In this document: in pieces, positions 3,192 through 62,360 of the stretch
Layout: the number at the start of each line of letters is the position of its first letter
How positions within the stretch are numbered: the stretch's first letter is position 1
DNA from: a virus
Taxonomy: Duplodnaviria > Caudoviricetes
DNA length: 64,000 nt
Strand: one strand, 5' to 3'
Virus record (IMG/VR): IMGVR_UViG_3300021440_000021
Location: 612 to 64,611 of that record
Translations under genes and position numbers: made by a program
The notes under the pieces: model-generated
What the model was told of the DNA's origin: nothing
What the model saw: only the letters and a program-made list of their open reading frames with translations
The model's database searches: none

Positions 3192-4979
3192 ATGACTGAT
3201 TACGGGCCTACACTACCGATTTCACAAGAAATTCATCAAATGAAGTATAGAAGTAAAGGAGAAAGTTTTAAGGAGTCTATGATTAGGGTGGCAGATGCCC
3301 TAAAAGATGACGAAGAGCATTACAAAGCTCTTAAAGAAATTCTTCTTGATATGCGCTTTCTACCTGCTGGCCGTGTTCAGTCTGCTATTGGTTCTCCTCG
3401 TGTTGTAACAGCTTTCAACTGCTTTGTCAGCGACACTATTAAGGACTCTATGGAGTCTATTATGGCTGTAGCTACGCAAGCAGCAGAGACTATGAGACTT
3501 GGTGGTGGCATTGGTTATGACTTCTCCACCCTACGACCTCGTGGTGCCCTTATCAAGAGCCTAGACACACGTTCTAGTGGGCCTATTGCCTTCATGGACA
3601 TCTATGATGCCATCTGTAAGACTATTGCCTCTGCTGGCCATCGTAGAGGCGCTCAGATGGGTGTTCTTCGTGTTGATCACCCAGACATCGAGGAGTTTAT
3701 TAGGGCAAAGACTAACAGTGATAGACTGACACAATTCAACATCTCTGTTGGCATCACTGATGAGTTTATGGATGCTGTATTAGAAAACAAGATGTTTGAC
3801 CTTCGTTTTGAAGGGGTTGTCTATAAACGAGTGAGTGCTGTTGCTTTGTGGAATGAAATTCTTCGTTCTACATGGGATTGGGCTGAACCGGGGGTTCTCT
3901 TCTTAGACACGATTAATAAGAAGAATAACCTACATTATTGTGAGACCATTGCAGCCACGAATCCTTGTGGGGAACAGCCTCTTCCTCCTCATGGAGCCTG
4001 CCTCCTTGGTTCTATGAACCTAACCAAATACATCAATCCACATATTGTTAATAATGAAGATATTAATAGAGGATTTGATGAACAAGATGGCTGGGAATTT
4101 GACTATGGATTGTTTGTAGACGATGTTCGTCATATCGTCAGAGCAATGGATAATGTCATTGATGTTACAGTGTACCCACTAAAAGAACAAGAGAAGGAAG
4201 CTAAAAGCAAACGTCGTATGGGTCTTGGCCTCACAGGTGTGGCCAACACAGGAGAAATCCTTGGATATTCTTATGCCTCACCATCGTTTAAAAAATGGCT
4301 TGAAGAAGTTATGATGGTGTTTAGAGATGAAGTGTATTATGCCTCTATTGAACTGGCTAAAGAAAAAGGAGCTTTCCCCCTTTTTGACACTGAGTTTTTA
4401 AATTCTGGTTTTGCTAAAACCCTGCCAGAAGACCTTCGTGATGCTATTCGTGTTCATGGCATTCGTAATAGTCATCTTCTTTCTATTGCCCCCACAGGAA
4501 CTATTAGCTTATCTGCTGACAATATCTCTTCTGGTATTGAGCCTGTGTTCTCTCATGGCTACGACAGGACCATTCAAACATTTGATGGTCCTAAAGTTGA
4601 GCGTGTAGAAGATTATGCCTATCGTGTCTATGGAGTTAGGGGCAGAACTGCTGATGAAACCCCTGTGCAAGACCATGTAGCTGTCCTCACCCTTGCTAGT
4701 AAATATATTGACTCAGCTTGTTCTAAAACTTGTAATGTTGGAGCCGATGTTACATGGGAGGAGTTTAAAGATGTCTATATGCAAGCTTGGCTTGGTGGGG
4801 CCTCTGGCTGCACTACATTTAGAGCAGCAGGTAAACGTTATGGCATTCTTAACGCCTCTGCTGTAGAAGATGTGGCTGTAGAGGAAGTTAAGGAGGAAGA
4901 CACCTTCGTTGATGAAAAGGATGTCATTGGTGGTGCTTGCTATTTTGATGTTGCAACAGGAAGACGCCACTGTGAATAA
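3192..4979 (+). CDS. nrdJ: class II (adenosylcobalamin-dependent) ribonucleotide reductase
   Basis: FNCFV, RRGAQMG, ATNPCGEQPL, SIAPTGT; no NrdB gene in window. Confidence 0.9.
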   Translation: MTDYGPTLPISQEIHQMKYRSKGESFKESMIRVADALKDDEEHYKALKEILLDMRFLPAGRVQSAIGSPRVVTAFNCFVSDTIKDSMESIMAVATQAAETMRLGGGIGYDFSTLRPRGALIKSLDTRSSGPIAFMDIYDAICKTIASAGHRRGAQMGVLRVDHPDIEEFIRAKTNSDRLTQFNISVGITDEFMDAVLENKMFDLRFEGVVYKRVSAVALWNEILRSTWDWAEPGVLFLDTINKKNNLHYCETIAATNPCGEQPLPPHGACLLGSMNLTKYINPHIVNNEDINRGFDEQDGWEFDYGLFVDDVRHIVRAMDNVIDVTVYPLKEQEKEAKSKRRMGLGLTGVANTGEILGYSYASPSFKKWLEEVMMVFRDEVYYASIELAKEKGAFPLFDTEFLNSGFAKTLPEDLRDAIRVHGIRNSHLLSIAPTGTISLSADNISSGIEPVFSHGYDRTIQTFDGPKVERVEDYAYRVYGVRGRTADETPVQDHVAVLTLASKYIDSACSKTCNVGADVTWEEFKDVYMQAWLGGASGCTTFRAAGKRYGILNASAVEDVAVEEVKEEDTFVDEKDVIGGACYFDVATGRRHCE

Positions 4980-19360: not shown

Positions 19361-20364
19361 GATACCTTCATCTCTCTATTCTGGGCTTCTGGTGTAAAAA
19401 CTCTGTTGATATTTGTAGCTTCTAACAAAACTGTCCTGTTTTGATTTTCCACCAGATATGTTCTATTATTTCTATCTTCCCAAAGGATGATTGTCCGTAA
19501 TTTACTAAAGGCAGAGGTATCCCAAAAATAAGATGAGACACCAAGGGCTGTAGATGTTCCGTAGGCTTGTCCAATATTTTCTAGAGGAGAAACCCCTAAA
19601 ACTGTTGAACTGCCAGAAGCAGAGCCAACAGCATATACCAGAGATTTACCAACACCACTTACCAGAGATGTTCCAGAAGAACTCCCCACAGCATAGACTA
19701 GAGAAATCCCCACACCATTTGCTGTTCCAACCCCAGAAGAGGCACCAACAGCAGATGCTGTAGATGCACCAACAGCAGATGCTGTAGATGTTCCAGAAGC
19801 AGAGCCAACAGAACCACCACCCCCTGTAGAACCAACACCAGAGACAGTGGATGTGCCAGTAGCATTACCTACACCAGAGGCTGTTGAGAATCCAACACCA
19901 GTAGCTACACCAGAACCACTTGCAGAGGCCACAGAAGAGGCCGTAGAGGCCCCTGTACCATTTGCACTACCTACACCAGTCGAAGAAGCTGTTGCGTTTG
20001 CTAGGGCCTTCCCAACGCCTGTAGCAGCCCCTGCCCCAGAAGAGCTTCCTGTGGAAGAGGCTGTAGAGAAACCTACACCTGTCGCAACACCAGAACCAGA
20101 AGAGCTTCCAACACCAGCAACAGCAGCAAGGCCCACAGCAGAAGCTGAACCAGAACCACTAGCAGAGCCAACAGCCGAAACTGTTGAAAAGCCTACACCA
20201 GAAGCATTACCAACACCTGATGCAGAAGCTGTAGACGAAGCTGTAGAACTACCAACACCTGTTGCTGTTCCTACACCAGAAGCAGAGGCTACACCAGAAG
20301 CAGAAGCGGTGACAACAGCATCATCAGCAATAGGAGCAGAGGCAAGTGGGGAAAAACCTAACAT
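19357..20364 (-). CDS. Gly/Ser/Ala repeat fibre-like protein
   Basis: MLGFSPLASAPIADD N-terminus; ~20-aa periodic ASG-G-A-GVG repeats. Confidence 0.65.
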   Translation of the reverse strand: MLGFSPLASAPIADDAVVTASASGVASASGVGTATGVGSSTASSTASASGVGNASGVGFSTVSAVGSASGSGSASAVGLAAVAGVGSSSGSGVATGVGFSTASSTGSSSGAGAATGVGKALANATASSTGVGSANGTGASTASSVASASGSGVATGVGFSTASGVGNATGTSTVSGVGSTGGGGSVGSASGTSTASAVGASTASAVGASSGVGTANGVGISLVYAVGSSSGTSLVSGVGKSLVYAVGSASGSSTVLGVSPLENIGQAYGTSTALGVSSYFWDTSAFSKLRTIILWEDRNNRTYLVENQNRTVLLEATNINRVFTPEAQNREMKVS

Positions 20365-20375
20365 GTAAAACCTCT

Positions 20376-21254
20376 TTAGAAAATAGCTGTGATCATAACA
20401 AAGCCATCACCACCTCGACCACCACGGCCACCAGAGACACCAACACCTCCTCCGCCACCACCACAGCCACGTCCGCCAGCACCACCAACACCACCAGCAC
20501 CGCTGTTATTCGATCCACCACCAGAGCCGCCCGAAAATGTCATAGGCGTCCATAATGTAAAGCCATCAGCACCATTACCAAGTGTAGGTCCACCAGCAAT
20601 AGTTGGACAAAGCCCAGCACCAGTGATGGCACCACCAAGGTTATCCGATGCTGTAGCTCCACCACCACCTGCACCACCAGAGACAAATGTAGCCGTTGCG
20701 CCCCATGTCACCGTCGCACCAACCGCAGACGAGCCACCTGCTGCTCCTGCTGCACCAATCAGCCCCATATACGAGCCAAGAGGCCCATAGATATTAGCTG
20801 TATATGCACCAGAAGCCGAACCTGCTGCACCACCTGTGCCAGAACTTGCCGCTGCACCACCGTTGCCACCTGTGGCCCCGATCAGTTGGTAAGATGTGCT
20901 GATGATGTCCCCAGTGATCTGGACAAGCGAAGTCGTCCCTGCAACCGCCGAACCACCACCAGAAACGTTACCATCCCCACCTCGACCCGCCATAACAAAA
21001 AGCACTTTTGGAAGATAGGCTGTAGCAATCAGAAGACGGGAAACAGCTCCCCCACCTCCACCACCGCCCCCGCCACCTGCCAAACCTGCTGTGCGGTTAA
21101 ATCCACCGCCTCCACCACCACCCCCACCTACAGCGAGAATATCTAATGCTACAGCGCCTTCAGGAATTGCGTAATGCTGCCATTGCAGCGTGTTACCGGG
21201 AGGATCAAACCTAACGGTGTTTCCTGCCATCTGGGGGAATGCAAAAGGAATCAT
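20376..21254 (-). CDS. glycine-rich virion/fibre-tip protein (paralog 1)
   Basis: VGGGGGGG...GGRGGDGFVMITAIF. Confidence 0.7.
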   Translation of the reverse strand: MIPFAFPQMAGNTVRFDPPGNTLQWQHYAIPEGAVALDILAVGGGGGGGGGFNRTAGLAGGGGGGGGGGAVSRLLIATAYLPKVLFVMAGRGGDGNVSGGGSAVAGTTSLVQITGDIISTSYQLIGATGGNGGAAASSGTGGAAGSASGAYTANIYGPLGSYMGLIGAAGAAGGSSAVGATVTWGATATFVSGGAGGGGATASDNLGGAITGAGLCPTIAGGPTLGNGADGFTLWTPMTFSGGSGGGSNNSGAGGVGGAGGRGCGGGGGGVGVSGGRGGRGGDGFVMITAIF

Positions 21255-22114
21255 TAGTAGATCACCGTTATCATAACAAAGCCATCACCACCGCGTCCGC
21301 CAGCACCACCTGTTGTGCCAGCACCGCCTCCACCCCCGCCACAACCACGAGCACCATTTCCGCCCGCACCGCCGACGCCCGCGTTAGACGAGCCGCCGCC
21401 AGACCCACCGCAAAACGTCGGAGGAGTCCACAATTCATAGCCCGCACCGCCGGGGTTTGAGCCTGCCGCACCACCATTGATCGTGGCGCAGATGCCTGAT
21501 CCGGTAACGGTGCCGCCAGCAAAGTCAGCCGCGCTTGTGCCAGCTCCACCGCCACCGCCTGTTACGAACAGTGCCGATGCACCAAAAACCACACCAGTAC
21601 CAGCACCGCCCGCTACAGCACCACCAGCTCCTCCGGCAACACCCGCAAAGGCGATGAAATTACCAAGCGCGGTATATGCCCCACCAGATGCAATAGCCCC
21701 AGCCGCTCCGGCTGCCCCAACAGCAGCAAGTGCACCTGTACCACCTGCACCACCACCGTTGGTCGTCAGTAGTTGCAAAGCCGCAGCAACTGCACCTCCG
21801 GCAAGCTGCACAACGGATGCACCACCCGCTGTGCCTGCCGCACCGCCAACACCGGGAGAAATATAAAGCACCCGGCCCAATCGGGCGGTCGGCACCCACA
21901 TGCGTGTGATGCTACCTGATCCGCCTCCACCTCCGCCACCACCATTACCAGAGGCCCGCGTGAAGCCTGCTCCACCACCGCCTCCACCACCGACGGCAAG
22001 GATGGCAAGAGCAACAGCACCATCAGGAATGACGAAAGTTTGCCAGACGTTTGTCCCGACCGGATCAAAACGTCGTGTTTGGCCAGTTTCTTTTGGTAAG
22101 AAAAAAGGAAACAT
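21254..22114 (-). CDS. glycine-rich virion/fibre-tip protein (paralog 2)
   Basis: colinear with 20376..21254; ends GGRGGDGFVMITVIY. Confidence 0.7.
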   Translation of the reverse strand: MFPFFLPKETGQTRRFDPVGTNVWQTFVIPDGAVALAILAVGGGGGGGAGFTRASGNGGGGGGGGSGSITRMWVPTARLGRVLYISPGVGGAAGTAGGASVVQLAGGAVAAALQLLTTNGGGAGGTGALAAVGAAGAAGAIASGGAYTALGNFIAFAGVAGGAGGAVAGGAGTGVVFGASALFVTGGGGGAGTSAADFAGGTVTGSGICATINGGAAGSNPGGAGYELWTPPTFCGGSGGGSSNAGVGGAGGNGARGCGGGGGGAGTTGGAGGRGGDGFVMITVIY

Positions 22115-35890: not shown

Positions 35891-35964
35891 TGGTGCTGAT
35901 TGTAGGAGTCGAACCCACGTCAGAGGACTACAAAACCACTGTTCTACCATTGAACTAAATCAGC
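35891..35964 (-). tRNA. tRNA-Thr(UGU)
   Basis: GCUGAUU acceptor, GGUUCGACUCC T-arm, loop UU-UGU-AG, encoded CCA; anticodon stem has two U-U mismatches. Confidence 0.8.
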
Positions 35965-38748: not shown

Positions 38749-39303
38749 ATGGCTGTTAAAGCAGAAAAAAGCCTGTTTGTGCAGGCTGGTGACTTCTGGA
38801 ATAAGCACGTCAAACTGGATAAAGAAGGGCTTGTCCTTTTGGACAAGACCATCCAACGTGTTGTCGAATATCGGGATTGGGACGCCTTGTCGCGTTTCAT
38901 TTCCCGTGCTGGCATGGACAAACCCAAGGTAGCCCGTATTGTTCGCGCCGCTTTTGGTGACTCGCTCACCTATAAGACTGACACCAGCCATAGCTCCGGC
39001 GGTGTCATCAAGATGAAATGGCCTGCTGACCAGAAATTTGTCCTTCTGAATAGCTATGCCCATGTGATGAAGGCTGTTGCAGAGGGCAAGGCTTTCAATG
39101 ATGCGGGTTTGCAGAAGGCCATTAAACCCATCAAGAAGGAACCGAACAAAGACAAGGCCGAATTGCTTGCGGCATACAAAACCCGCGCCGAAAAATGGGC
39201 CAAGGAAAATGGCATCACCATTGGTGCCATGATTGCCGCATTGCAAGCCAAGCCCACGAATGAAGCGGGCAGCAATGGCATTGTCGTTCATAAGGCTGCC
39301 TAA
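38749..39303 (+). CDS. early hypothetical protein
   Basis: GAGG SD, C-ending codon bias. Confidence 0.7.
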   Translation: MAVKAEKSLFVQAGDFWNKHVKLDKEGLVLLDKTIQRVVEYRDWDALSRFISRAGMDKPKVARIVRAAFGDSLTYKTDTSHSSGGVIKMKWPADQKFVLLNSYAHVMKAVAEGKAFNDAGLQKAIKPIKKEPNKDKAELLAAYKTRAEKWAKENGITIGAMIAALQAKPTNEAGSNGIVVHKAA

Positions 39304-39407
39304 TCCGCAGTCTTTTCTGGAATTAAGGGACATGTCCAGCGCAGAAATGCGGGTTAACCCCCTACAATACCACAACAAAGGATAGTGGATATTGGGTAAA
39401 ATCCGGC

Positions 39408-39463
39408 GGCCCTCTTTCTTAGGTTTGGTGCACCCTTGTTGCCGAAAGAAAGAGGGCTTTTTA
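39408..39463 (+). terminator. long hairpin/terminator
   Basis: gccctctttct...agaaagagggc followed by ttttt. Confidence 0.55.
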
Positions 39464-39669
39464 TTTTAGGGTGTATTTATTAGAGGGTGGACAGAAGGAA
39501 TAGGCATTGCATAAAACCGATTTATAACAGATTGGCAATCCAATGTCTAGCCCCCAGTGTAAAAGCTGGGGGCTATCTCACACCAAATTATGACAGGGAA
39601 ACACAAGAGGGAAGATTATGTCTATTCGTTATGAAATTGTTGCTCGCCTTGTTATGATTGGATTGTATA

Positions 39670-39864
39670 ATGCTTAGAGGGAAGAAACAAAAAACTGTTA
39701 GGTCTAGGTCTAGGTCTAAGGCTTGGTCTAGGTCTTGGTCTGGGTCTGGGTCTTGGTCTTGGTCTGGGTCTGGGTCTTGGTCTAGGTCTGGGTTTGGGTT
39801 TGGGTCTTGGTCTGGGGCTAGGTTTTGGTCTTGGTCTGGGTCTTGGTCTGAGTCTGAGTCTTGA
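39670..39864 (+). CDS. Ser-X dipeptide-repeat peptide 1
   Basis: MLRGKKQKTV leader then (S-R/W/G)n built from TCT-NGG hexamers. Confidence 0.6.
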   Translation: MLRGKKQKTVRSRSRSKAWSRSWSGSGSWSWSGSGSWSRSGFGFGSWSGARFWSWSGSWSESES

Positions 39865-39938
39865 TCTTGGTCTAGGTAAAACATAACAGAAACAAACATC
39901 AACAAACACAATAACGTGTCAAACAATGGAGAAACGGA

Positions 39939-40202
39939 ATGAAAATCCTGCAAACTGTAATTGAAGAAGAGAAAGAAGGCTTTCTGGCTTTGATGGGCCA
40001 AACCATCACTGTCTATTGCATGAATTACATTTACACTGGCAAACTTGTCGGTGTAAATTCTGATCAAATCAAATTGGAAAATGCAAAGATTGTGTATGAA
40101 ACGGGTTCATTCAATTCCAAAGAGTGGAAAACTACTGAGGCTTTCCCTAATGACATTTACCTGCGCCACAGTGCAATTGAGATGTACACCATTCTGAAAT
40201 AA
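39939..40202 (+). CDS. Sm/LSm-like fold protein (putative)
   Basis: LMGQTITVYC..YIYTGKLVGV..QIKLENA...IYLRHSAI resembles Sm1/Sm2 motifs. Confidence 0.55.
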   Translation: MKILQTVIEEEKEGFLALMGQTITVYCMNYIYTGKLVGVNSDQIKLENAKIVYETGSFNSKEWKTTEAFPNDIYLRHSAIEMYTILK

Positions 40203-40305
40203 AACTTGGGGTCAAATCTGCGGTAAGGGCCGTTTGTGTAAAAGCATTCTTCACAAACAAACTTGTTTGTGAATGTGACGGCCACCTTTTTATAAGGATA
40301 AAACA

Positions 40306-40497
40306 ATGCCTAGAGGAAAGAGACAAAAAATTGTTAGGTCTAGGTCTGGGTCTAAATCTAGGTCTTGGTCTAGGTCTGGGTCTGGGGCTTGGTCTAAATC
40401 TAGGTCTTGGTCTTGGTCTAGGCCTTGGTCTAAGTCTGAGTCTAGGTCTTGGTCTTGGTCTAGGTCTGAGTCTTGGTCTTGGTCTAGGTCTTGGTGA
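40306..40497 (+). CDS. Ser-X dipeptide-repeat peptide 2
   Basis: AAGGA SD; MPRGKRQKIV leader then (S-R/W/K/E)n. Confidence 0.65.
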   Translation: MPRGKRQKIVRSRSGSKSRSWSRSGSGAWSKSRSWSWSRPWSKSESRSWSWSRSESWSWSRSW

Positions 40498-40512
40498 GAA
40501 GGAAAAGAAATT

Positions 40513-40857
40513 ATGAAACATCTAATCAAATTGTTGGCCTGTTGCTTGCCTTTGCAAGCACAAGCTGAAACATGCAAATGGAGTGGGATGTATGTTGACA
40601 TTTCACCTACGCAAGAGGGGAATGTATCGGTTCATTTTCATAATGAGCTAACCTCTTCGTGGGGAGATTCCCCCTTCTATTGCATTGTCACGATTGATGG
40701 AGAAATCTTTCGTGCTGTAATCACAGCGGGAAATGGTGAAATTCCCGACAACATTCTCATTGAACACCCTGTTGGATGGCAAGCTATGCCGGAACAAATT
40801 GACGTGAAAGAGGGGGATGATGGCTATTTGCTTGTCACCCCCATTCTCCTTGGATGA
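40513..40857 (+). CDS. secreted/periplasmic hypothetical protein
   Basis: signal peptide ending AQA. Confidence 0.6.
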   Translation: MKHLIKLLACCLPLQAQAETCKWSGMYVDISPTQEGNVSVHFHNELTSSWGDSPFYCIVTIDGEIFRAVITAGNGEIPDNILIEHPVGWQAMPEQIDVKEGDDGYLLVTPILLG

Positions 40858-40964
40858 CAGGAACAAAATGATGACCGACACCAACAAAGACGCCATCGCC
40901 GGGCTGATCGGCAAATGGGGGCATCCGAAATGAGCAAAGTGCAAGAAATGCACATTGGTGTCGC

Positions 40965-41186
40965 ATGACAGCCGAGGTCGTTAATCTCGAAACTGTCACG
41001 CGGCTTGACCTGCCCGCCGAAAGAATTTTGCAAGCGGCGCTGGCTGCTGGCTTAGAAAGCGCAATCGTCATTGGATACGACGCGGACGGCGATGAATACT
41101 TTGCATCGTCCTTGGCTGATGGCGGCGCTGTTATTTGGCTGCTTGAGCGCAGCAAGCTGCGGCTTTTGCGGATGGCAGACGAATGA
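40965..41186 (+). CDS. hypothetical protein in a high-GC patch
   Basis: VIGYDADGDEYFASS...WLLE family; GC-rich codons. Confidence 0.65.
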   Translation: MTAEVVNLETVTRLDLPAERILQAALAAGLESAIVIGYDADGDEYFASSLADGGAVIWLLERSKLRLLRMADE

Positions 41187-43311: not shown

Positions 43312-43388
43312 GGAGGCATAGCCCAATTGGCAGAGGCATCCGGTTTAAACCCGGTAAAGTTAGGGTTCGAATCCCTATGCCTCTACCA
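43312..43388 (+). tRNA. tRNA-Leu(UAA), short variable loop, nested inside the split tRNA-Leu
   Basis: GGAGGCA/UGCCUCU acceptor, loop UU-UAA-AC, GGUUCGAAUCC T-arm, A73, CCA. Confidence 0.85.
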
Positions 43389-43511
43389 TTATATACGTAG
43401 AAACAAGGTTAAAAAAGACAAACAATTAAAAATAAAATCTGTCGATTAATTCATGCCGGTTCGAGTCCGGCAGGGGGCACCAAGTTAGATGTGTAGACAG
43501 AAATTGAGATT

Positions 43512-43584
43512 CGTGGGGTAGCTCAGTTGGTAGAGCAGACGACCGATAATCGTCAGGTCTCAGGTTCAACACCTAACTCCACGA
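43512..43584 (+). tRNA. tRNA-Ile(GAU), atypical or degenerate
   Basis: canonical D-arm, GACGA/UCGUC stem with loop CC-GAU-AA (C33), T-stem mismatch, no encoded CCA. Confidence 0.65.
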
Positions 43585-43822
43585 GCGATGCAGGCCCGGT
43601 GAGGGGTAGAAAAGGCAGGGGGTGTGATGGTCACAACAACCAAAGCATGGACCCAATGCGCTCCGGGTGTAGAAAGACCCCCTCACACCAAGTTAGATGT
43701 GAAGCGGTGAATGCTAAAGGTCATACCCGGCCTGAGTAACCGTAATTGAGGTCTCCACGGCAAGGAGTCTGGTGTGTCGAGTCGCACCCACATCTAAATC
43801 ATTAAGTAGAGAGGAAATAAAC

Positions 43823-44152: not shown

Positions 44153-44229
44153 GCACCCGTAGCTCAACTGGAAAGAGCAAGAGATTTCTAATCTCTGGGT
44201 TGGGGGTTCGAGTCCCTCCGGGTGCTCCA
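44153..44229 (+). tRNA. tRNA-Arg(UCU)
   Basis: GCACCCG/CGGGUGC acceptor, AGAGA-UUUCUAA-UCUCU, GGUUCGAGUCC, CCA. Confidence 0.92.
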
Positions 44230-46865: not shown

Positions 46866-47741
46866 ATGTCTGTATATATGCTTCGTCGTCGTAAACTTGG
46901 GCGCACCTCTTGCCGAGAGATTGCCCGTCTATCTGATAAGATTGATGGTGTTGTTCGTAATGATCAACAATTTCCTGCTGACCTTTCCATGATTATTCGT
47001 TGGGGGACCACGAGTAATGTCCCTACGAATAATATTGTAAATACAGCAGAGGCTATTCATCGTGTTGGTGATAAGGCTGGATTTAGAAATCTGCTGATGG
47101 ATAATTTCTTTGAAGTTCAAGGTGGTCTTGGTTCTCCACTTTGTCCCATGACTTATTTAGAAATGCACAAACCACAACTTCTTTTGTGGATGAGGGATGG
47201 AAAACAAATGGTTGTTCGACCTCGTGTCCACGCACAAGGCCGTCATGTTTACCTTGTCAACAATGAAGCAGAACTTAATGCAGCCATTGCTCGTTGTGGA
47301 GAGGGTTGGTATGCCTCTGAATATATCAACAAAGTGGCTGAATATCGTGTCACCTTCGTTCAAGGACGTGTTGCTTGGGTGGCCAAGAAAACTCCCGGTA
47401 ATCCTCAAGATGTAGCTTGGAACGTAGCTCGTGGGGGACGCTTTGATAATGTTCGATTTGATAATTGGCCTTTGAAAGCAATTAAGATTAGCCGTGAAGC
47501 TTTCATGCTTTCTGGCTTAGATTTTGGTGCTGTTGATGTCATGGTTGATGCAGATGATCAGGCTTATGTACTTGAGATTAACTCAGCCCCATCTCAAACT
47601 TCCCCATATCGTCAAGAATGTATGGCCAAATGTTTTGACTATCTTATTGAGAATGGGAAAGAAACTATTCCTGTCATCCAACAACGTGGAAATTGGAAAA
47701 AGTTTATCCATCCGGCTTTGTCTAACGAAGCTTTAATGTAA
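46866..47741 (+). CDS. ATP-grasp ligase (RimK/phiEco32-like)
   Basis: IRWG, EYRV, GLDFGAVDV, YVLEINSAP. Confidence 0.9.
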   Translation: MSVYMLRRRKLGRTSCREIARLSDKIDGVVRNDQQFPADLSMIIRWGTTSNVPTNNIVNTAEAIHRVGDKAGFRNLLMDNFFEVQGGLGSPLCPMTYLEMHKPQLLLWMRDGKQMVVRPRVHAQGRHVYLVNNEAELNAAIARCGEGWYASEYINKVAEYRVTFVQGRVAWVAKKTPGNPQDVAWNVARGGRFDNVRFDNWPLKAIKISREAFMLSGLDFGAVDVMVDADDQAYVLEINSAPSQTSPYRQECMAKCFDYLIENGKETIPVIQQRGNWKKFIHPALSNEALM

Positions 47742-47751
47742 GGAGAATTTT

Positions 47752-48618
47752 ATGCAACTCGCTGAAGTGGTGCCTTATTTTGGTGCTTTTGAAAAAGAGG
47801 CTAATGGTAGTAGAAGTGCGAATGCTTACATTGGTTTTTTGGCAAAAAAATCCGATAAAATCTTTTATAAAATGGTTGGTCCCGGCCCTTGTCATGGGGC
47901 TATACAGAAAGGCAATTATGTTTTTAATGATTTTAACCCGACAGACTTTGCCATTCTTTCTAAAATTCAAAACTTACGTGTCGAAAAACCTGTAGCAGAG
48001 GGATACTTTGACTATCTGGTAAACAGAAGCCCTTTTAAAGAAGCTTTCCTAAATAAAGATACCAAAAATGGGAATGTTTGGGCTGTTCGCACTGACCTTC
48101 CTGCAAACCTTGTTGGGGCAGCTTTAATGGCCTCTCGCACTCCAACTGAAAACTATTTGGATTACATCCACAAACGTTTAGCGGTTTTCGAGGAGATTAA
48201 GTCCCTTGGGTTTAGTGAAAACTTTGCCTACATCTTCTCGTTTGTATATCAAAAAACAGATGGAAAGAAATATCAGTTTTCGTATGCTCCCTTGGCTTGT
48301 GGGCATTGCGTGTTCTCTTTTAACAAGCGTGGGGAAGACTATTTCCGTAATTTCATTAACAACACTCCCCCCAATCTCTCAAAAGAAACCTTCTATGAGA
48401 ATATGGGGTATTCACCCAACACGATTAACAATATTTGGGGAGGCTTTCCCGGAGATGCCTTCATGAATTGGTTGCAATGTGTTAAACCAATTAAGGAAGT
48501 TGGCAAAAAAGACTTGAACATCTTTGCAAAAACAAAGAGTGTTACTTATTACTACGAGTCCAAAGAGGACTTTAAGAATGTCCTACAGCAAGTGGAGCGG
48601 AGAATTTTTGATGTCTAA
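47752..48618 (+). CDS. hypothetical protein in the ligase cluster
   Basis: SD, coupled to the GATase gene. Confidence 0.7.
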   Translation: MQLAEVVPYFGAFEKEANGSRSANAYIGFLAKKSDKIFYKMVGPGPCHGAIQKGNYVFNDFNPTDFAILSKIQNLRVEKPVAEGYFDYLVNRSPFKEAFLNKDTKNGNVWAVRTDLPANLVGAALMASRTPTENYLDYIHKRLAVFEEIKSLGFSENFAYIFSFVYQKTDGKKYQFSYAPLACGHCVFSFNKRGEDYFRNFINNTPPNLSKETFYENMGYSPNTINNIWGGFPGDAFMNWLQCVKPIKEVGKKDLNIFAKTKSVTYYYESKEDFKNVLQQVERRIFDV

Positions 48619-49231
48619 GAAAGTTTTGATCGTAGGACTTCAAGACCACAATATGACCCGTATGTTTTTTGCAAACGGGTGGGAAGTTACTTATGACACA
48701 CTTGATCCTGATATTAGCCTCATTCAGTTCACTGGTGGGTCTGATGTTGACCCTTCTTACTATTAACAACAGAAGCATCCAGCCACACAATCTAACCCAG
48801 AGAGAGACGCAAGAGAGGCTCAAATCTATCTTGAATATGTCAACAAGCTACCTATGGCTGGTATTTGTCGTGGTGGCCAATTTTTAAATGTCATGAATGG
48901 TGGTTCTATGTGGCAACATGTCAATAACCACATTGGCAATCATATGGCTTTTGAAGTTCTCACCCAGAAAGAAATTATTGTCACATCTACACACCATCAA
49001 ATGATGGTTCCTACAGATGAGGCATTAGTTCTTATGACTGCTAGTAGGGCTACAGTGAGGCAAGGTGGGGGTAAGGCAGAACTTCTTGGGGAACGAGATG
49101 ATGATGTTGAAGCTATCTATTACCCAAAGACAGAATGCCTTTGCTTCCAACCACATCCAGAATACTTTCAACCTAATCACCCATGTCAAACGACATATTT
49201 TGATTATCTAAACACTTTCTTTGGTCTATAA
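48611..49231 (+). pseudogene. class I glutamine amidotransferase/peptidase C26, interrupted by in-frame TAA at 48764-48766
   Basis: FTGGSDVDPSYY*QQKHP...GICRGGQFLN...STHHQ...FQPHPE in one reading frame. Confidence 0.8.
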
Positions 49232-49242
49232 GGAGAACTAAT

Positions 49243-50625
49243 TTGTGCGGACTTGTTGGTGTAATGTCTAGACTTGTCTCGGAAGATGCTAAGAAAGCCT
49301 TCCATGACATGCTCTACCTTGATGTTCTTCGTGGAGAGGATAGCACTGGTGTAGCAGCTATCTCTAATTTACAATCTGATAAAATGGAAGTGGAGATGTT
49401 CAAATCTGTTGGCTCTACCACAGATTTGTTTGACAAGCATTCTAAGAACAAGAAATTTCGATCCCTTACCTATAAACCCGTGAGTATCTACATCGGGCAT
49501 AATAGGTTTGCTACACAAGGGGCAATCAACGAGGAAAGTGCTCATCCTTTTGAGTTTGAGAATGTTGTTGGAGCACACAATGGGACAGTCAATCAACATT
49601 CTATGAAAGATTTCAATGGGTATAAAGAACATAACATTGACTCCAAGATCATCTTTTCTCATCTATCTCACACCAGAGATATTAACACTATTTGGAAAGA
49701 TGCTGATGGTGCAATGGCTCTTGTTTATTTTGATAAGAACAACCATACACTAAATTTAATTCGTAATAAAGAACGTCCTCTTCACTTTGTCTACTCTAAA
49801 GATGATAAAACCTTGATGTGGGCATCTGAGTCTTGGATGTTGTGGGTTGCTGCTGGTCGTCAGAACATTGATCTTAATGATATTGTGGCTGTCAAACCCA
49901 ACACTCTTTATACCTTTGAACTTACGAAAGAGGGGAAGGTTCAACATACTGAAACTGATGTAGCCCCTTTTACCCCAAAGCCCGTTCAGCATTTCCTCCC
50001 AAATTATTCTCAGCGTTCATCAAATTACTACGATGACTGGATGGAAGATTATGGTGGGGCAACTTACAATAAGCCTGCTGAAAAGAAAGAAAAGAACCAC
50101 AGTAATTGTGCTGTAATTGTTACAGAGTTTCATGACAATCCCCGTGCCCCTCTGGCTATGGGTTTCTTGTCTGATGGCTCGCCAGTGAAAATTAACATTA
50201 GTTTGGCTAAATATTTAGAAGCCAAGCAAAGGGTTGAAGCAAAAGATGGGCAATGGTATTTCATTGTTCCAAAAGTCTATCGAACCTCAATCATCCACAC
50301 CAACAATGATGCCCCATATTGGTGTCATTGGGCTGATTGTCGTGTAGCTAAACTCAAACCTCATATGCAGATTGTCCGTCTTCCTAATAAGGGGTTTGTG
50401 TTTAAGTCCAAACAAGGGGTTAAAACAGCTTTTGCCCCTTGGTATGACGAAAAACTTTGCCTGACTGAAAATCGTTATAATGCCATCACAGATTGTGGTT
50501 GTTATAATTGTAAAGAACGTCCGGTTTGGGCAGATAGAGAATCCCTACACTGGATTGATGCAGAGACATTCTTCTGCGATAGTTGTTTTGAACTTAACGA
50601 TGTAAAAGCTGCGATTGCAAAATAA
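49243..50625 (+). CDS. class II (Ntn) glutamine amidotransferase
   Basis: N-terminal MCGLVG, RGEDSTG, GHNRFAT, AHPF, HNGT, RNKERPL; C-terminal Cys motifs. Confidence 0.9.
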   Translation: MCGLVGVMSRLVSEDAKKAFHDMLYLDVLRGEDSTGVAAISNLQSDKMEVEMFKSVGSTTDLFDKHSKNKKFRSLTYKPVSIYIGHNRFATQGAINEESAHPFEFENVVGAHNGTVNQHSMKDFNGYKEHNIDSKIIFSHLSHTRDINTIWKDADGAMALVYFDKNNHTLNLIRNKERPLHFVYSKDDKTLMWASESWMLWVAAGRQNIDLNDIVAVKPNTLYTFELTKEGKVQHTETDVAPFTPKPVQHFLPNYSQRSSNYYDDWMEDYGGATYNKPAEKKEKNHSNCAVIVTEFHDNPRAPLAMGFLSDGSPVKINISLAKYLEAKQRVEAKDGQWYFIVPKVYRTSIIHTNNDAPYWCHWADCRVAKLKPHMQIVRLPNKGFVFKSKQGVKTAFAPWYDEKLCLTENRYNAITDCGCYNCKERPVWADRESLHWIDAETFFCDSCFELNDVKAAIAK

Positions 50626-50635
50626 GGAGAGAATT

Positions 50636-51571
50636 ATGAAAATCAATGGTTATGACTTTAAAATTGGTGCTGATCCTGAGTTCTTTGTTAAACGCTTTGG
50701 GAAACTTCAAAGTGCATACAATCTTATCCCCGGAACAAAAGAGGCCCCTTACAAAGTGAGGGGTGGGGCAGTTCAGGTTGATGGCATGGCTCTGGAATTT
50801 AACATTGATCCTGCCGAGAATTACACCCAGTTTGAAGATAATATGAGTGTTGTCCTCGCTCAAATCACTTCAATGATCCCCGGCTATGAATTGTTTGTTG
50901 AGCCTGTTGCCGATTTTGGTTTGGACTACATTCGCAAGCAACCGAAGGAAGCCTCTGAACTTGGATGTTCTCCTGATTTCAATGCTTATACCAAAGAAGC
51001 TAACCCACGTCCTGATGCTGACACCCCCTTCCGTACGGCATCTGGACACATTCACATTGGTTGGACCAATGGTGTAGATATTAATGATCCGGGTCACTTG
51101 GAAGCTTGCCGCACACTTACCAAAATGCTTGATCTTTATGTTGGTGCCCCCTCTCTTGTGTGGGATAATGATGATCGTCGTCGTTCTCTTTATGGTGCGG
51201 CAGGTGCCTTCCGTCCCAAGCACTATGGTATGGAATATCGTGTGCTTTCTAACAAGTGGATTAACAATCCGCTTCTTCGTAAGACGGTGTATTACAACAC
51301 CATTGATGCAATCAAAAAGGCTTTTGACAATCCCGCAGCTTCTGAGGAACTTTTCTATGGGGCCTCTGTTCGTGACATCGTAAATAAAAAGGCAGATAAT
51401 TGGATGTCTGCTCTTGCTTATATCTTTGATTATGCTGGTGTTACTAGCCCTAAGAAACGCCGCGAACAAACCGAGATTAAAATTGACCCCAACACCCTTG
51501 TCTATGCTGTGGGTGGTGGTGGCGGAGGAGGTGGCATCCGAGCCGCTGCTGGTGGGGCAGGGGCTGCTTAA
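50636..51571 (+). CDS. COOH-NH2 ligase type 2 (phiEco32-like)
   Basis: IGADPEFF, LEFNIDPA, LGCSPDFNAY, RTASGHIHIG, YGAAGAFRPKHYGMEYRVLSN. Confidence 0.9.
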   Translation: MKINGYDFKIGADPEFFVKRFGKLQSAYNLIPGTKEAPYKVRGGAVQVDGMALEFNIDPAENYTQFEDNMSVVLAQITSMIPGYELFVEPVADFGLDYIRKQPKEASELGCSPDFNAYTKEANPRPDADTPFRTASGHIHIGWTNGVDINDPGHLEACRTLTKMLDLYVGAPSLVWDNDDRRRSLYGAAGAFRPKHYGMEYRVLSNKWINNPLLRKTVYYNTIDAIKKAFDNPAASEELFYGASVRDIVNKKADNWMSALAYIFDYAGVTSPKKRREQTEIKIDPNTLVYAVGGGGGGGGIRAAAGGAGAA

Positions 51572-51573
51572 TC

Positions 51574-52137
51574 ATGTATTTTGATGATATTGATTACGCA
51601 AATAAACGGTTGGGGGGAACTCTCGTTAGGACTAAAACGGGTGCCCCTTATATGGTAGCCAGTGTCTCTCAGATTGGAAGAGATATTGTTTGCATTGGCA
51701 ACTTTCTAGGCAACCCAAAAGCAGAAGGAATTAACCTCTCTGAGATCGACCTCACTCCTGTTTCTTTGGGGTTTTTTAATGTTGGCGAGAAAATGTTTTT
51801 TGCTTGTCGTCGTCCTATGCGGAAAGATTGGAAGCAAGGGTTGTCTCCGCAAAATCTTCTGATCTATGGTGGGAGACTTGGAGAAATTGGATTTGAGCCT
51901 CTTATCCAACCTATTACGAACAACTATCCGAGGGTGGGAGAAGCCCTCAGTTTCCTTAGTAAAAAAGATAAAGCCTCTAGAGCTTTTTCTAGAGATTTTG
52001 GATTAAGTAAACGAGATGGTAGACTTATTATCTGCTATCGTAAATACGATGTTGGAGAAGTTAAAAGTGGAGAGTTTGTTCTCTCCCCTGACAAATTCTT
52101 CCTCCAACAACATCTGTCTGAAGCAGTAGGAACCTGA
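51574..52137 (+). CDS. hypothetical protein in the ligase cluster
   Basis: LGFFN...RRPMRKDWKQGL...AFSRDF. Confidence 0.7.
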   Translation: MYFDDIDYANKRLGGTLVRTKTGAPYMVASVSQIGRDIVCIGNFLGNPKAEGINLSEIDLTPVSLGFFNVGEKMFFACRRPMRKDWKQGLSPQNLLIYGGRLGEIGFEPLIQPITNNYPRVGEALSFLSKKDKASRAFSRDFGLSKRDGRLIICYRKYDVGEVKSGEFVLSPDKFFLQQHLSEAVGT

Positions 52138-52138
52138 T

Positions 52139-52981
52139 ATGGAAATTAGAGACATTATCCCTTGTAAGAAAGAGACGGGCAACATTGGTGTTGAGATTGA
52201 GGTGGAAGCTGATAATCTTCCTCCGCGTGATCTTGTTGCCCGTTATTGGAAGGTGGATGCTGATGCCTCTCTTCGTGGTGAAAGCTGCGAGTTTGTATTG
52301 AAGAAGCCTCTGAATACTAGAGATTTGGATTTGGCTTTTGAAGAGCTGCAAGGAGCAATCAATTCTAGTGGGACACGTCTTCGCCCCACTTATCGTGCTG
52401 GCATCCACGTACACATTAATGTGCAAGACCTTTCCCCTAAACAACTAATCACTTTCATCTCTTCATATTTTATGTTGGAAGAAGTGCTCCTGTCATATTG
52501 CGACAAATCTCGTATTGGGAATCACTTCTGTCTTCGTATGACTGATGCAAGCTATACATTGGACATGATTACACAAGCTGTCTTGGATTCAAACCTCAAA
52601 CTTCTGGACACTGAAGACCTGCGCTATGCCAGCTTGAATATCACGAGCTTGTTCAAGTATGGTTCTATTGAGTTCCGTGCTTTAGAGTCCATGCTTGATT
52701 TCAAGAAGATTAAAATCTGGGCTGGTGTCTTGCAACATCTTAAAGAGTTTAGCAAGAAAATTACAAATCCCACAGATTTGTTGAATGAAGCCAGTGCCAG
52801 AGGCTTTGAGACCTTTGCTCGTGATCTCCTTGGCCCTTATTATGAGTTCTTTGGTCGTTATGCTACCGAGGAAAAAATTCGTGTTGGTATTAGAAATATT
52901 CAATATGCTGTTTATTCCCGTAATTGGAGCGAGGTTAATAGAAATATCTTTGATAAAAATATTAACCTTTTCACCTCTTGA
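52139..52981 (+). CDS. amidoligase (glutamine synthetase/GCS-fold)
   Basis: GVEIEVE, DASLRG..EFV, GIHVHIN, RYASLN, GSIEFR. Confidence 0.88.
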   Translation: MEIRDIIPCKKETGNIGVEIEVEADNLPPRDLVARYWKVDADASLRGESCEFVLKKPLNTRDLDLAFEELQGAINSSGTRLRPTYRAGIHVHINVQDLSPKQLITFISSYFMLEEVLLSYCDKSRIGNHFCLRMTDASYTLDMITQAVLDSNLKLLDTEDLRYASLNITSLFKYGSIEFRALESMLDFKKIKIWAGVLQHLKEFSKKITNPTDLLNEASARGFETFARDLLGPYYEFFGRYATEEKIRVGIRNIQYAVYSRNWSEVNRNIFDKNINLFTS

Positions 52982-60974: not shown

Positions 60975-62360
60975 ATGCGACCGTTAATCGACGCTGATGT
61001 GCTTTAGCTTTTATACGAAATTGGCTTCTCGTCAGAACGTATGGAACCTAATGAGGAGGGCGAGCTTGTGCTCGTCCCTGCCTCTTGGGAATTTGCACAA
61101 GAACTATTTGATCAAAAGATCAAATTAATTTGCGATGAGGTGAGAGCAACAGAAAGCCCGTTGCTCTTCCTCACTAATACACCGCGTATTAACAAACTAA
61201 GAAACAAAGAACGAAAAAGAAATGACGAACCTGAAAAGATTTATGTCGAAAATTTTAGGCATGAGGTGGCGAAAGAGAAAGAATACAAAGGCACACGTAA
61301 AGCAACCAAGCCTTTCCACTTCTACAACCTCCTCAACTATGTTCTTGCCAATTATGATGTTCATGTTGACGAGCAGGGGCTAGAAGCCGATGATGCAATG
61401 TGTATATATCAAATTCAGATTGCTAAAGAGTATGGGGTAAAAGTCCCTTTTCATGGGGGGTATTTTCTTCTTGATTATGAAGACTGGCTAAAATACAATA
61501 AGACTACCTTTATCCAAGATAATAAAGGGTATCTAGTTAATGACACAGGGAAAGACCTTACAAGAAAAGTTTGGCTTCTCCACAGAGAGATTATGGGCAA
61601 TCCTGAAGGCTTTGTTGTAGATCATATAAATGGGAACACTTTAGACAATCGTAAATACAATCTGCGCATTTGTACTACCAAAGAGAACGTTCGAAACTCT
61701 AAACCACAAGAGGGTTCTTCTGCATATAAGGGGGTCTCTTGGGATGAGTCAAGAGGTAAATGGCTTGCGGGTATAAAAGTAGATCGTGAGCACATTTTCT
61801 TGGGAAGATACGATTTAGAACTAGATGCTGCCAAAGCATATGATGATGCCGCAGAAACTCATTTTGGGGTATATGCAAGGTTAAATCTAAAACCCCCTTA
61901 TACCAAACCTTATAAAGAGACTATTATTTGTTCTAGAGACAAAGATGTTAGACAGTGTCCTCTTTGGCATTATAGTTGGGAATGTGGAAAACAAGCATCT
62001 GTTGGTCCTATTTTAGTAGAACCTCTTGGAGAATTAGTTCAAATTAATCCTAAGAAAATCTTTGGCACAGGTGCTAAGTTCTTTTACTATCAACTTCTCG
62101 TTGGTGACACCGTAGATAATATTGGTGGTATCAAGGGGAAAGGACCAGCTTTTGCATTCAATCTCCTTAAAGACTGTGTATCAGAGAGACAGTGTTATGA
62201 GTTTATCGCCCATGTCTATCTGCAACATCATGGAGATGAATGGAAGACTAAATTTAGAGAGCAGGCAGACCTGCTTTATATGATTAGAGAATTAGATGAG
62301 AAAGGAGAGAAAATTAAATGGAAGCCCCCGCAATTGGCAAAATCAGAGATATCTGGTTAA
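60975..62360 (+). CDS. 5'-3' exonuclease with an in-frame HNH-AP2 insertion; TAG at 61005 in the N-terminus
   Basis: LIDADVL, YKGTR, EADD, SRDKD, GDTVDNIGGIKGKG motifs. Confidence 0.85.
61430..61915 (+). mobile_element. HNH-AP2 homing endonuclease domain embedded in the exonuclease
   Basis: LHREIM...VVDHINGNTLDNRKYNLR...N; SSAYKGVSW...KW...LGRY...AAKAYDDAA...FGVYARLN; boundaries approximate. Confidence 0.85.

Follow-up and report, generated by a model that had tools for sequence, protein, structure and literature searches.

An Sm-like protein gene and its serine-X repeat partners in uncultured tailed phages

What is encoded by two arrays of a six-nucleotide repeat that lie on either side of a small gene for an Sm-like protein, and what might such a set of genes do? 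The question is raised by a 64,000-nucleotide stretch of DNA from a tailed phage (Duplodnaviria; Caudoviricetes), hereafter the window, which comprises positions 612 to 64,611 of the IMG/VR virus record IMGVR_UViG_3300021440_000021 and is nearly the whole of this 64.6-kb record. An original prediction, made from the letters alone, had described three small open reading frames (ORFs) between positions 39670 and 40497, two of them alternating serine with a second residue (Ser-X) and the third, between them, carrying Sm-like motifs. The sequence, the ORF list and a repeat finder bear out all three ORFs and both Ser-X arrays, and we rate the locus as a real, widespread and undescribed phage module, with hundreds of uncultured phages carrying the pair. 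It would be one instance of a self-contained two-gene cassette of uncultured tailed phages, in which the first gene is predicted to encode a small acidic protein of Sm/LSm fold and the second, usually translationally coupled to it, a strongly basic and probably disordered peptide of 40-90 amino acids, built of a leader followed by Ser-X repeats. X is Gly, Trp or Arg, and each hexamer consists of a Ser codon and an NGG codon, so that a single base can toggle X among these three residues. The analysis established the predicted fold of the central protein, the selected frame and the leader of the repeat genes, their linkage to two divergent Sm-fold families, the opposite charges of the partners, the maintenance of the Gly/Trp/Arg mix and the rapid in-frame change of array length.

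Copy 1 of the Ser-X repeat gene (39670..39864, plus strand) is present in the ORF list with an ATG at 39670 and a TGA at 39862-39864, and encodes 64 amino acids with a net charge of +9, 9 Trp and 22 Ser. The gene for the acidic Sm/LSm-fold protein (39939..40202, plus strand) encodes 87 amino acids with a net charge of -2 and an isoelectric point (pI) of 5.3. Copy 2 of the repeat gene (40306..40497, plus strand), which has an AAGGA 9 nucleotides (nt) 5' of its ATG, encodes 63 amino acids with a net charge of +14, 10 Trp and 24 Ser. The two peptides open with MLRGKKQKTVRSRS (copy 1) and MPRGKRQKIVRSRS (copy 2) and then pass into Ser-X alternation. Tandem Repeats Finder reported period-6 arrays with the consensus GGTCTN at 39701-39877 in copy 1 (29.5 copies, 81% matches) and at 40335-40495 in copy 2 (26.8 copies, 77% matches), and all other period-6 rows in the window have at most 3.8 copies. 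The likeness between the two copies starts exactly at the ATG, with none upstream; in this phage the peptide gene may have been duplicated, leaving one copy on each side of the Sm-like gene.

The repeat also runs past the TGA of copy 1, as originally predicted: a remnant at 39865..39879 (plus strand) reads TCT TGG TCT AGG and is then closed by TAA. The same TGA is found in contigs from two sequencing runs, which may be the source sample. The earlier suggestion that this TGA is a mutated TGG fits the sequence, and on the simplest reading a TGG to TGA change probably clipped the last units off the ORF.

Reading frame of the repeat arrays

The variable base N of the repeat unit falls in the wobble position of two other frames, GGT-CTN (Gly-Leu, plus strand) and CCN-AGA (Pro-Arg, minus strand), and the ORF list shows both of them to be open in the window. 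The frame therefore needed testing on relatives. Had only the window been available, purifying selection on a Pro-Arg or Gly-Leu product would have been the more orthodox reading, in preference to a Ser-X product whose X is hypervariable. Relatives were collected by scanning IMG/VR with the central protein, which gave 79 loci, many of them close kin, with 39-59% identity. Nearly all of these loci carry a period-6 array just downstream of the central-gene homologue, and the array unit differs between phages, being GGTCT, GGTCG, GGTCA, GGAGC or GGAGT, each followed by N. In the Ser-X frame these units read TCT, TCG, TCA, AGC or AGT, all of which are Ser codons, followed by NGG. Across 71 distinct ORFs, the first position of the unit is Ser in 1568 of 1681 cases (TCG 43%, TCT 30%, AGC 11%, TCA 8%), and the second is NGG in 1465 of 1681 (GGG 34%, TGG 28%, AGG 13%, CGG 12%).

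An upstream start codon is available to the Ser-X frame in 54 of 78 arrays, among them all 54 fully open ones, versus 8 of 73 for the Gly-x frame. The leader RGLKQKYR occurs as an identical peptide in five DNA versions, with 6 of its 8 codons differing through synonymous swaps such as CGC versus AGG for Arg and TTA, CTT or CTG for Leu. The preservation of the leader through synonymous changes, the switching between the TCN and AGY families of Ser codons and the distribution of start codons all argue that the Ser-X frame, which the original prediction had adopted, is the selected one. Both other frames were rejected. The Gly-x frame on the plus strand would yield Gly-Leu, Gly-Arg, Gly-His/Gln, Gly-Ala or Gly-Val in different phages, mostly without a start codon, and the Pro-Arg frame on the minus strand turns into Pro-stop (TGA) in the GGTCA arrays.

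Read in this frame, the Ser-X peptides have a median length of 61 amino acids, a median net charge of +10 and a median of 7 Trp, and are composed of 40% Ser, 16% Gly, 14% Arg and 12% Trp. Their variable Ser-X core is preceded by a leader with the consensus M-(I)-R-G/S-x-K-Q-K-Y/W-R, which the leader of copy 1 fits. A query with the peptide against 5.8 billion proteins returned 318 word-sharing candidates, of which 0 reached E <= 0.001, and the ESM Atlas gave no usable match for it. Searches of the accessible literature found no description of such peptides or of the Sm-like family.

The Sm-like protein and its linkage to the arrays

An AlphaFold2 model of the central protein, built on a 34-sequence alignment, has a predicted local distance difference test score (pLDDT) of 92.6 and a predicted template modelling score (pTM) of 0.79. 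It consists of a short N-terminal helix and a strongly bent, five-stranded antiparallel beta-sheet (strands 22-27, 31-39, 43-54, 65-68/73-76 and 80-84). The top 50 Foldseek matches are Lsm and Sm chains and an Sm-fold subunit of NatC, with a probability of 1.00 to Lsm/Sm chains; VIA-align, which is independent of Foldseek, matched Lsm1-7, SmF and SmAP1 at Z 10.5-9.5 and placed Hfq lower, at Z 7.2-7.6. The predicted structure thus supports the Sm fold that had been proposed from the sequence, and we conclude from the model that the central protein has an Sm/LSm fold.

The original prediction had further recognized Sm1- and Sm2-like motifs. These stand as a likeness of fold and not as membership of a known family, since no Pfam match to LSM (PF01423), Hfq (PF17209), Phage_Hfq (PF23874) or SM-ATX was obtained at E values up to 1. 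A sequence profile of the Sm-like alignment likewise found no Sm chain or other relative in the Protein Data Bank. Among phage protein families, the profile of PHROG phrog_18022 (unknown function) was matched weakly (E 0.018, 16.2 bits, with no single stretch passing alone), and in the ESM Atlas a Phage_Hfq cluster was reached at a score of 0.80, which is a lead only; the Sm-like clusters there are 100% viral. Canonical Sm2 motifs carry an R-G that contacts uridine. In the Sm-like alignment, Y-E-T-G stands where the R-G would be expected.

A word-seeded search found at least 1033 homologous proteins, all labelled hypothetical, and the family forms 542 clusters at 50% identity among 1.84 billion representatives. 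Neither gene of the pair is part of a curated family, although the Sm-like protein is spread over this many clusters. In a collection of 50,697 GenBank phage records, tblastn with the Sm-like protein found one match, in the uncultured phage MW202825, and blastn of positions 39400-41000 found none. Homologues with two domains in tandem exist, which is compatible with the formation of rings. The proteins are consistently acidic: 65 of 66 distinct Sm-like proteins are net negative, with a median charge of -3 and a median pI of 4.9.

Linkage between the two genes was assessed in the 69 loci whose downstream flank reached 150 nt or more. An array was called where at least 10 of 12 consecutive units were Ser-first, on the same strand and no more than 700 nt downstream or 800 nt upstream of the Sm-like gene, and 344 windows of 1.5 kb elsewhere in the same loci served as controls. 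Arrays accompany the Sm-like gene in 66 of 69 loci and occur in 0 of the 344 control windows; the remaining three loci have weaker runs (7-9 of 12). Homologues of the central gene do therefore have Ser-X neighbours, as the original prediction had anticipated. The array lies downstream only in 62 loci, upstream only in 2 and on both sides in 2. Counting near-identical loci as well, the start codon of the peptide gene and the stop codon of the Sm-like gene overlap in about 25 loci (ATGA type), adjoin in 9 and are 1-30 nt apart in 26. The sandwich arrangement noted originally is present in the window, with one copy on each side and a hairpin-containing gap of 101 nt before copy 2, but it is a rare form; the usual one is an Sm-like gene followed by a single coupled Ser-X gene. 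When the plus-strand ORFs of 80 loci were clustered (BLASTP at 1e-5, coverage of at least 50%), the central gene was found in 80 of 80, and no other cluster was present in more than 4. The gene pair therefore travels alone through very different phage backgrounds.

A reverse scan of IMG/VR with five GGTCTN units returned at least 120 stretches. Among the matches listed, which cover 80 loci, a match to the hidden Markov model (HMM) of the central protein lies directly upstream on the same strand in 29. Many of the other loci end at contig edges or are short arrays, and some of the short arrays, in giant-virus bins, are probably unrelated. Several long arrays are preceded by a different protein of 87-121 amino acids, which constitutes a second family. 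It aligns with the first at 81% probability in hhalign (E 1.2e-5, 60 columns), and its AlphaFold2 model (pLDDT 87) has Lsm, Sm and SmAP as best matches (Z 8.8-8.0). Ten sequences of this second family have net charges from -2 to -7. In a 110-kb record rated complete, a gene of the second type is followed by a Ser-X ORF of 51 amino acids with a 4-nt overlap. In another record, Ser-X genes with a different leader stand in tandem near a UvsX-like gene, and about 29 kb away an Sm-like gene of the first type is followed by three more tandem Ser-X genes. Some Ser-X genes are without a nearby Sm-like gene, such as those between the primase-helicase and DNA polymerase genes of L127 and L155; these records are fragments.

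Some loci depart from the usual layout. Downstream of a single Sm-like gene, L082 (5948-9662) and L104 (1164-3983) each contain a row of 7-11 separate GGTCTN arrays, and these represent large Ser-X gene families arranged in tandem. L077 has, upstream of its Sm-like gene, a period-6 array of another kind (3455-3749), with 49 units of GGCTA/GGCGA/GGCTC, which does not belong to the Ser-NGG type. A pure GGTCTT array in L085 (4611-5103), a viral contig of 189 kb, encodes unbroken Ser-Trp with neither a basic leader nor an Sm-like neighbour, and may be unrelated to the module. We also considered that frameshifting or readthrough might fuse the peptide to the Sm-like protein, and rejected this: the intergenic gaps are distributed over all three frames, and inspection of 9 longer homologues showed no fused form.

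Array dynamics and possible roles of the pair

The arrays are uniform in all positions but one. The base at N differs from the main base of its array in 843 of 1522 units (55%), compared with 45 of 1364 (3.3%) at the Ser wobble position and 25 of 598 (4.2%) at the Gly wobble position, so that N is about 15 times more mixed than the neighbouring synonymous sites. Homogenisation thus affects every position except N, where the mixture is maintained. Of 602 Gly codons 576 are GGG, and of 436 Arg codons 418 are AGG or CGG; a given array uses AGG or CGG but almost never both. The share of Trp stays at about 0.2-0.4 throughout the range of locus guanine-plus-cytosine (GC) content, 0.32-0.68. The near-exclusive use of NGG can be explained by the need of a homogenised unit to keep Trp, which is encoded by TGG only, within reach. 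This codon architecture offers a clean natural example of a repeat whose amino-acid diversity depends entirely on one nucleotide.

Array length varies as well. Pairs of contigs with flanks that are 99.9-100% identical differ in array length only, giving peptides of 77 versus 61 (L003/L004), 81 versus 65 (L040/L041), 63 versus 61 (L030/L031) and 72 versus 42 (L069/L071) amino acids. The arrays would thus gain and lose units in frame, although the collapse of repeats in short-read assembly could contribute to these differences. The variation in repeat number between contigs with identical flanks is consistent with the slippage that the original prediction had invoked as a source of variants. Adjacent X residues are slightly less alike than in shuffled sequences (0.306 versus 0.339, z -2.8; the rarest pair is WW), so that single-unit slippage is not what the order of X records. 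Over the arrays, contigs from four freshwater runs reach 20-200 times the depth of the flanks, and assemblies end at the arrays, which argues that the same samples contain many further arrays of this kind. In freshwater metagenomes, GGTCTN arrays are so abundant that hundreds of contigs pile up. The arrays break assemblies, and gene callers probably overlook them or assign them the wrong frame.

As to what the pair does, we lean, tentatively and with less than even confidence, towards a two-part unit that binds or condenses nucleic acid, most likely RNA, and consists of an Sm-like scaffold and Ser-X peptides. A ring of Sm-like subunits would form the scaffold, and the peptides would provide multivalent Arg/Trp contact points on Ser/Gly spacers through which nucleic acid is bound or condensed. 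The Ser-X peptides could then be a separate-gene counterpart of the basic low-complexity tails that are fused to eukaryotic Sm/LSm proteins, such as the RG repeats of SmB, SmD1 and SmD3 and the tail of LSm4. Co-folding of the Sm-like protein with the peptide gave a score of 0.00 and a partner pLDDT below 50, which is evidence neither way; the low pLDDT of the peptide is compatible with disorder and is not evidence for it. The original interpretation is thus upheld in part, for the fold, the frame, the linkage and the variability, while a physical partnership of the two proteins and the amyloid-like beta strands that it had also offered gained no support. The module is common and portable, and joins an ancient fold of RNA chaperones with a microprotein made of dipeptide repeats. 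Should the pair bind or condense RNA, bacterial viruses would have in it a counterpart of Sm cores with basic tails, and it would offer a natural minimal system for Arg/Trp-driven condensation.

Comparison with known systems gives partial likenesses. Like the tailed eukaryotic Sm/LSm proteins, the module combines an Sm-fold core with an Arg/Gly-rich, repetitive and probably disordered basic segment; unlike them, it has its tail in a separate gene, as Ser-X with abundant Trp, and its core is acidic and has no LSM Pfam match. With Hfq and Phage_Hfq (PF23874) the central protein shares being a small phage-encoded Sm-fold protein, but it matches neither family in Pfam and has an extra loop between its last strands, and we know of no Ser-X partner of Hfq. 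The SR-rich regions of viral capsid and nucleocapsid proteins and the RS domains of splicing factors are basic, disordered and RNA-linked segments of alternating Ser and Arg. By analogy, the Ser-X peptide may resemble them in having Ser-Arg alternation in a basic, disordered segment, yet it has neither an attached folded RNA-binding domain nor a linked kinase, and Trp and Gly are as frequent in it as Arg. As far as the accessible part of the C9orf72 literature goes, the poly-GR and poly-PR products likewise arise from a hexamer DNA repeat that is translated into Arg-containing dipeptide repeats with several open frames; those products are pathological and come from a non-coding expansion, whereas the phage arrays have a conserved start, leader and stop, a mixed X and only one frame under selection. 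The module belongs to none of these four groups, because the profile tests failed and because a Ser-X partner encoded by a separate gene has no described counterpart in the literature accessible to us.

Several observations weigh against the proposed nucleic-acid-binding unit. The acidity of the protein and the Y-E-T-G in place of R-G suggest that the canonical RNA pocket may be absent, and Sm folds that serve purely to bind proteins (the NatC subunit, Gemin6/7 and the LSm domain of EDC3) are among the VIA-align matches. The strict restriction to NGG could come from a constraint at the RNA or DNA level instead. Some Ser-X genes are far from any Sm-like gene or form tandem families, and the peptide may therefore act alone. 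Many of the 79 loci being close kin, their counts are not independent events.

The main rival, which we consider unlikely but take seriously, is that the peptide is an effector and the Sm-like protein its chaperone: the cationic, Trp/Arg-rich peptide would attack host nucleic acids, ribosomes or membranes, and the acidic protein would neutralise, stabilise or deliver it. The charges of the partners are complementary (median +10 for the peptide and -3 for the Sm-like protein, with 65 of 66 negative), and the position of the Sm-like gene, upstream and coupled, resembles that in chaperone-cargo or antidote-toxin pairs. The occurrence of Ser-X genes in tandem families and away from Sm-like genes also fits, and an Arg/Trp-rich composition is typical of membrane-active peptides. 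However, half of the residues are Ser, which is atypical of such peptides, the peptide has no signal peptide or hydrophobic segment, and the module is located among early and replication genes and not among lysis genes.

A more speculative possibility, which we regard as distinctly improbable, treats the hexamer array as a built-in evolvability device. Concerted evolution would keep the array uniform except at N, which would be held near-maximally diverse, and units would be gained and lost in frame. New contact patterns would thereby be supplied to a peptide that joins the acidic Sm-like ring in building an RNA-rich condensate or in trapping a host target that evolves fast. The transcript itself would perhaps also be bound by the ring, as both message and ligand.

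Ranked below the main rival is an element that acts at the RNA level, which we doubt strongly. Here the (NGG-N3)n transcript would be an array of ligands for the Sm-like ring, serving autoregulation or RNA sequestration, with Ser-X translation being secondary. The precedent is TRAP, which wraps RNA with (G/U)AG-N2-3 repeats and does not have an Sm fold; the module resembles it in that a small ring-type protein is encoded next to RNA with a triplet every 5-6 nt. Whatever the genomic GC, 87% of units have an NGG codon at X, with Gly written nearly always as GGG and Arg nearly always as AGG/CGG, which places GG every 6 nt, and the Sm-like gene and its array always share a transcript side. The use of NGG is, however, also expected if all but N is homogenised and Trp must stay reachable. 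Moreover, unlike the TRAP targets, the phage array is an ORF whose 3-nt spacers are restricted to Ser codons, including the switch from TCN to AGY, which a model based on RNA alone does not predict. The non-repetitive leader is conserved as a protein, together with a start codon, and the Sm-like protein is acidic.

The original prediction had also listed precursors of modified peptides, which would be made ribosomally with a conserved leader and a hypervariable core and be processed by phage or host enzymes. This is very improbable. A leader-plus-variable-core layout is present, and genes for an ATP-grasp protein, an amidoligase and a COOH-NH2 ligase are located 6-12 kb downstream in this phage, but across the 80 loci no gene for a modifying enzyme is a conserved neighbour of the Ser-X gene, as no cluster other than that of the central gene occurs in more than 4 of them. 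In addition, the partner is an Sm fold of 87 amino acids and not a known leader-recognition domain, and there is no Cys, Thr or other usual pattern of modification. Least credible of all is a non-coding DNA repeat (an element of recombination or replication, or a simple repeat prone to assembly problems) with incidental ORFs: all frames of such hexamers tend to be open, the arrays break short-read assemblies and their unit number varies, but this would leave unexplained the switching of Ser codon families, the conservation of the leader with synonymous variation, the coupling of starts to the upstream stop and the strand fixed relative to the Sm-like gene.

Local signals and genome setting

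Upstream of the module, a terminator-like hairpin with a U-run is predicted at 39408..39465 (plus strand). In the RNA fold of 39400-39480 (-26.3 kcal/mol, z -1.95), it appears as a 13-bp stem followed by UUUUUAUUUU, and we infer that it marks the module boundary. A mini-ORF of 19 codons can be read from the sequence at 39618..39677 (plus strand), with the Shine-Dalgarno-like GAGGGAAG upstream. Its end overlaps the ATG of copy 1, with its stop 8 nt inside the gene, and it may be a device for translational coupling to copy 1. The gap between the Sm-like gene and copy 2 contains a second hairpin with CCUUUUUA after it (40228..40292, plus strand), which may be terminator-like or regulatory; the fold of 40200-40310 has -27.8 kcal/mol and z -1.95. 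An Rfam scan of 39300-40700 found nothing near any gathering score. Taken together, these signals would group copy 1 with the Sm-like gene in a single unit and make copy 2 the first gene of the following one.

According to domain annotation, the window codes for an SU10-type portal, a large terminase and the Peptidase_S74 tip of a tail fibre, and its replication genes include a family A DNA polymerase, a Toprim/DnaB-type primase-helicase and a ribonucleotide reductase. The structural genes are on the minus strand up to about 35.7 kb, and small early genes and replication genes are on the plus strand from about 36.7 kb, with the Ser-X/Sm-like module among the small plus-strand genes. The sequencing runs that contain the stretch are labelled as freshwater metagenomes, and there is no RNA run among those listed.

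Four transfer RNA (tRNA) genes are present, Thr-TGT (35891-35964), Leu-TAA (43312-43388), Ile-GAT (43511-43586) and Arg-TCT (44153-44229). Arg in the arrays of the window is encoded by AGG only (3 in copy 1, 8 in copy 2) and CGG is used 0 times; the Arg-TCT tRNA could help to read these AGG codons. The peptide-ligase-type genes downstream of the module form a cluster at 46866-52981 (plus strand), in which domain annotation recognizes a RimK/TTL-like ATP-grasp protein (46866-47741), a class-II glutamine amidotransferase (49243-50625), a phiEco32-type COOH-NH2 ligase (50615-51571) and an Amidoligase_2 protein (52139-52981), all on the plus strand. Two tandem genes with Gly_rich_2 domains are located at 20376-22114 (minus strand) and contain triplet repeats of the CCA type; the GC content of the bin 20001-22000, in the same region, is 0.579 versus about 0.36-0.51 elsewhere. 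Finally, the ORF at 61041-62360 (plus strand) joins HNH_3 and AP2 domains to the C-terminal fold of a 5'-3' exonuclease, and looks like a homing-endonuclease insertion or fusion.

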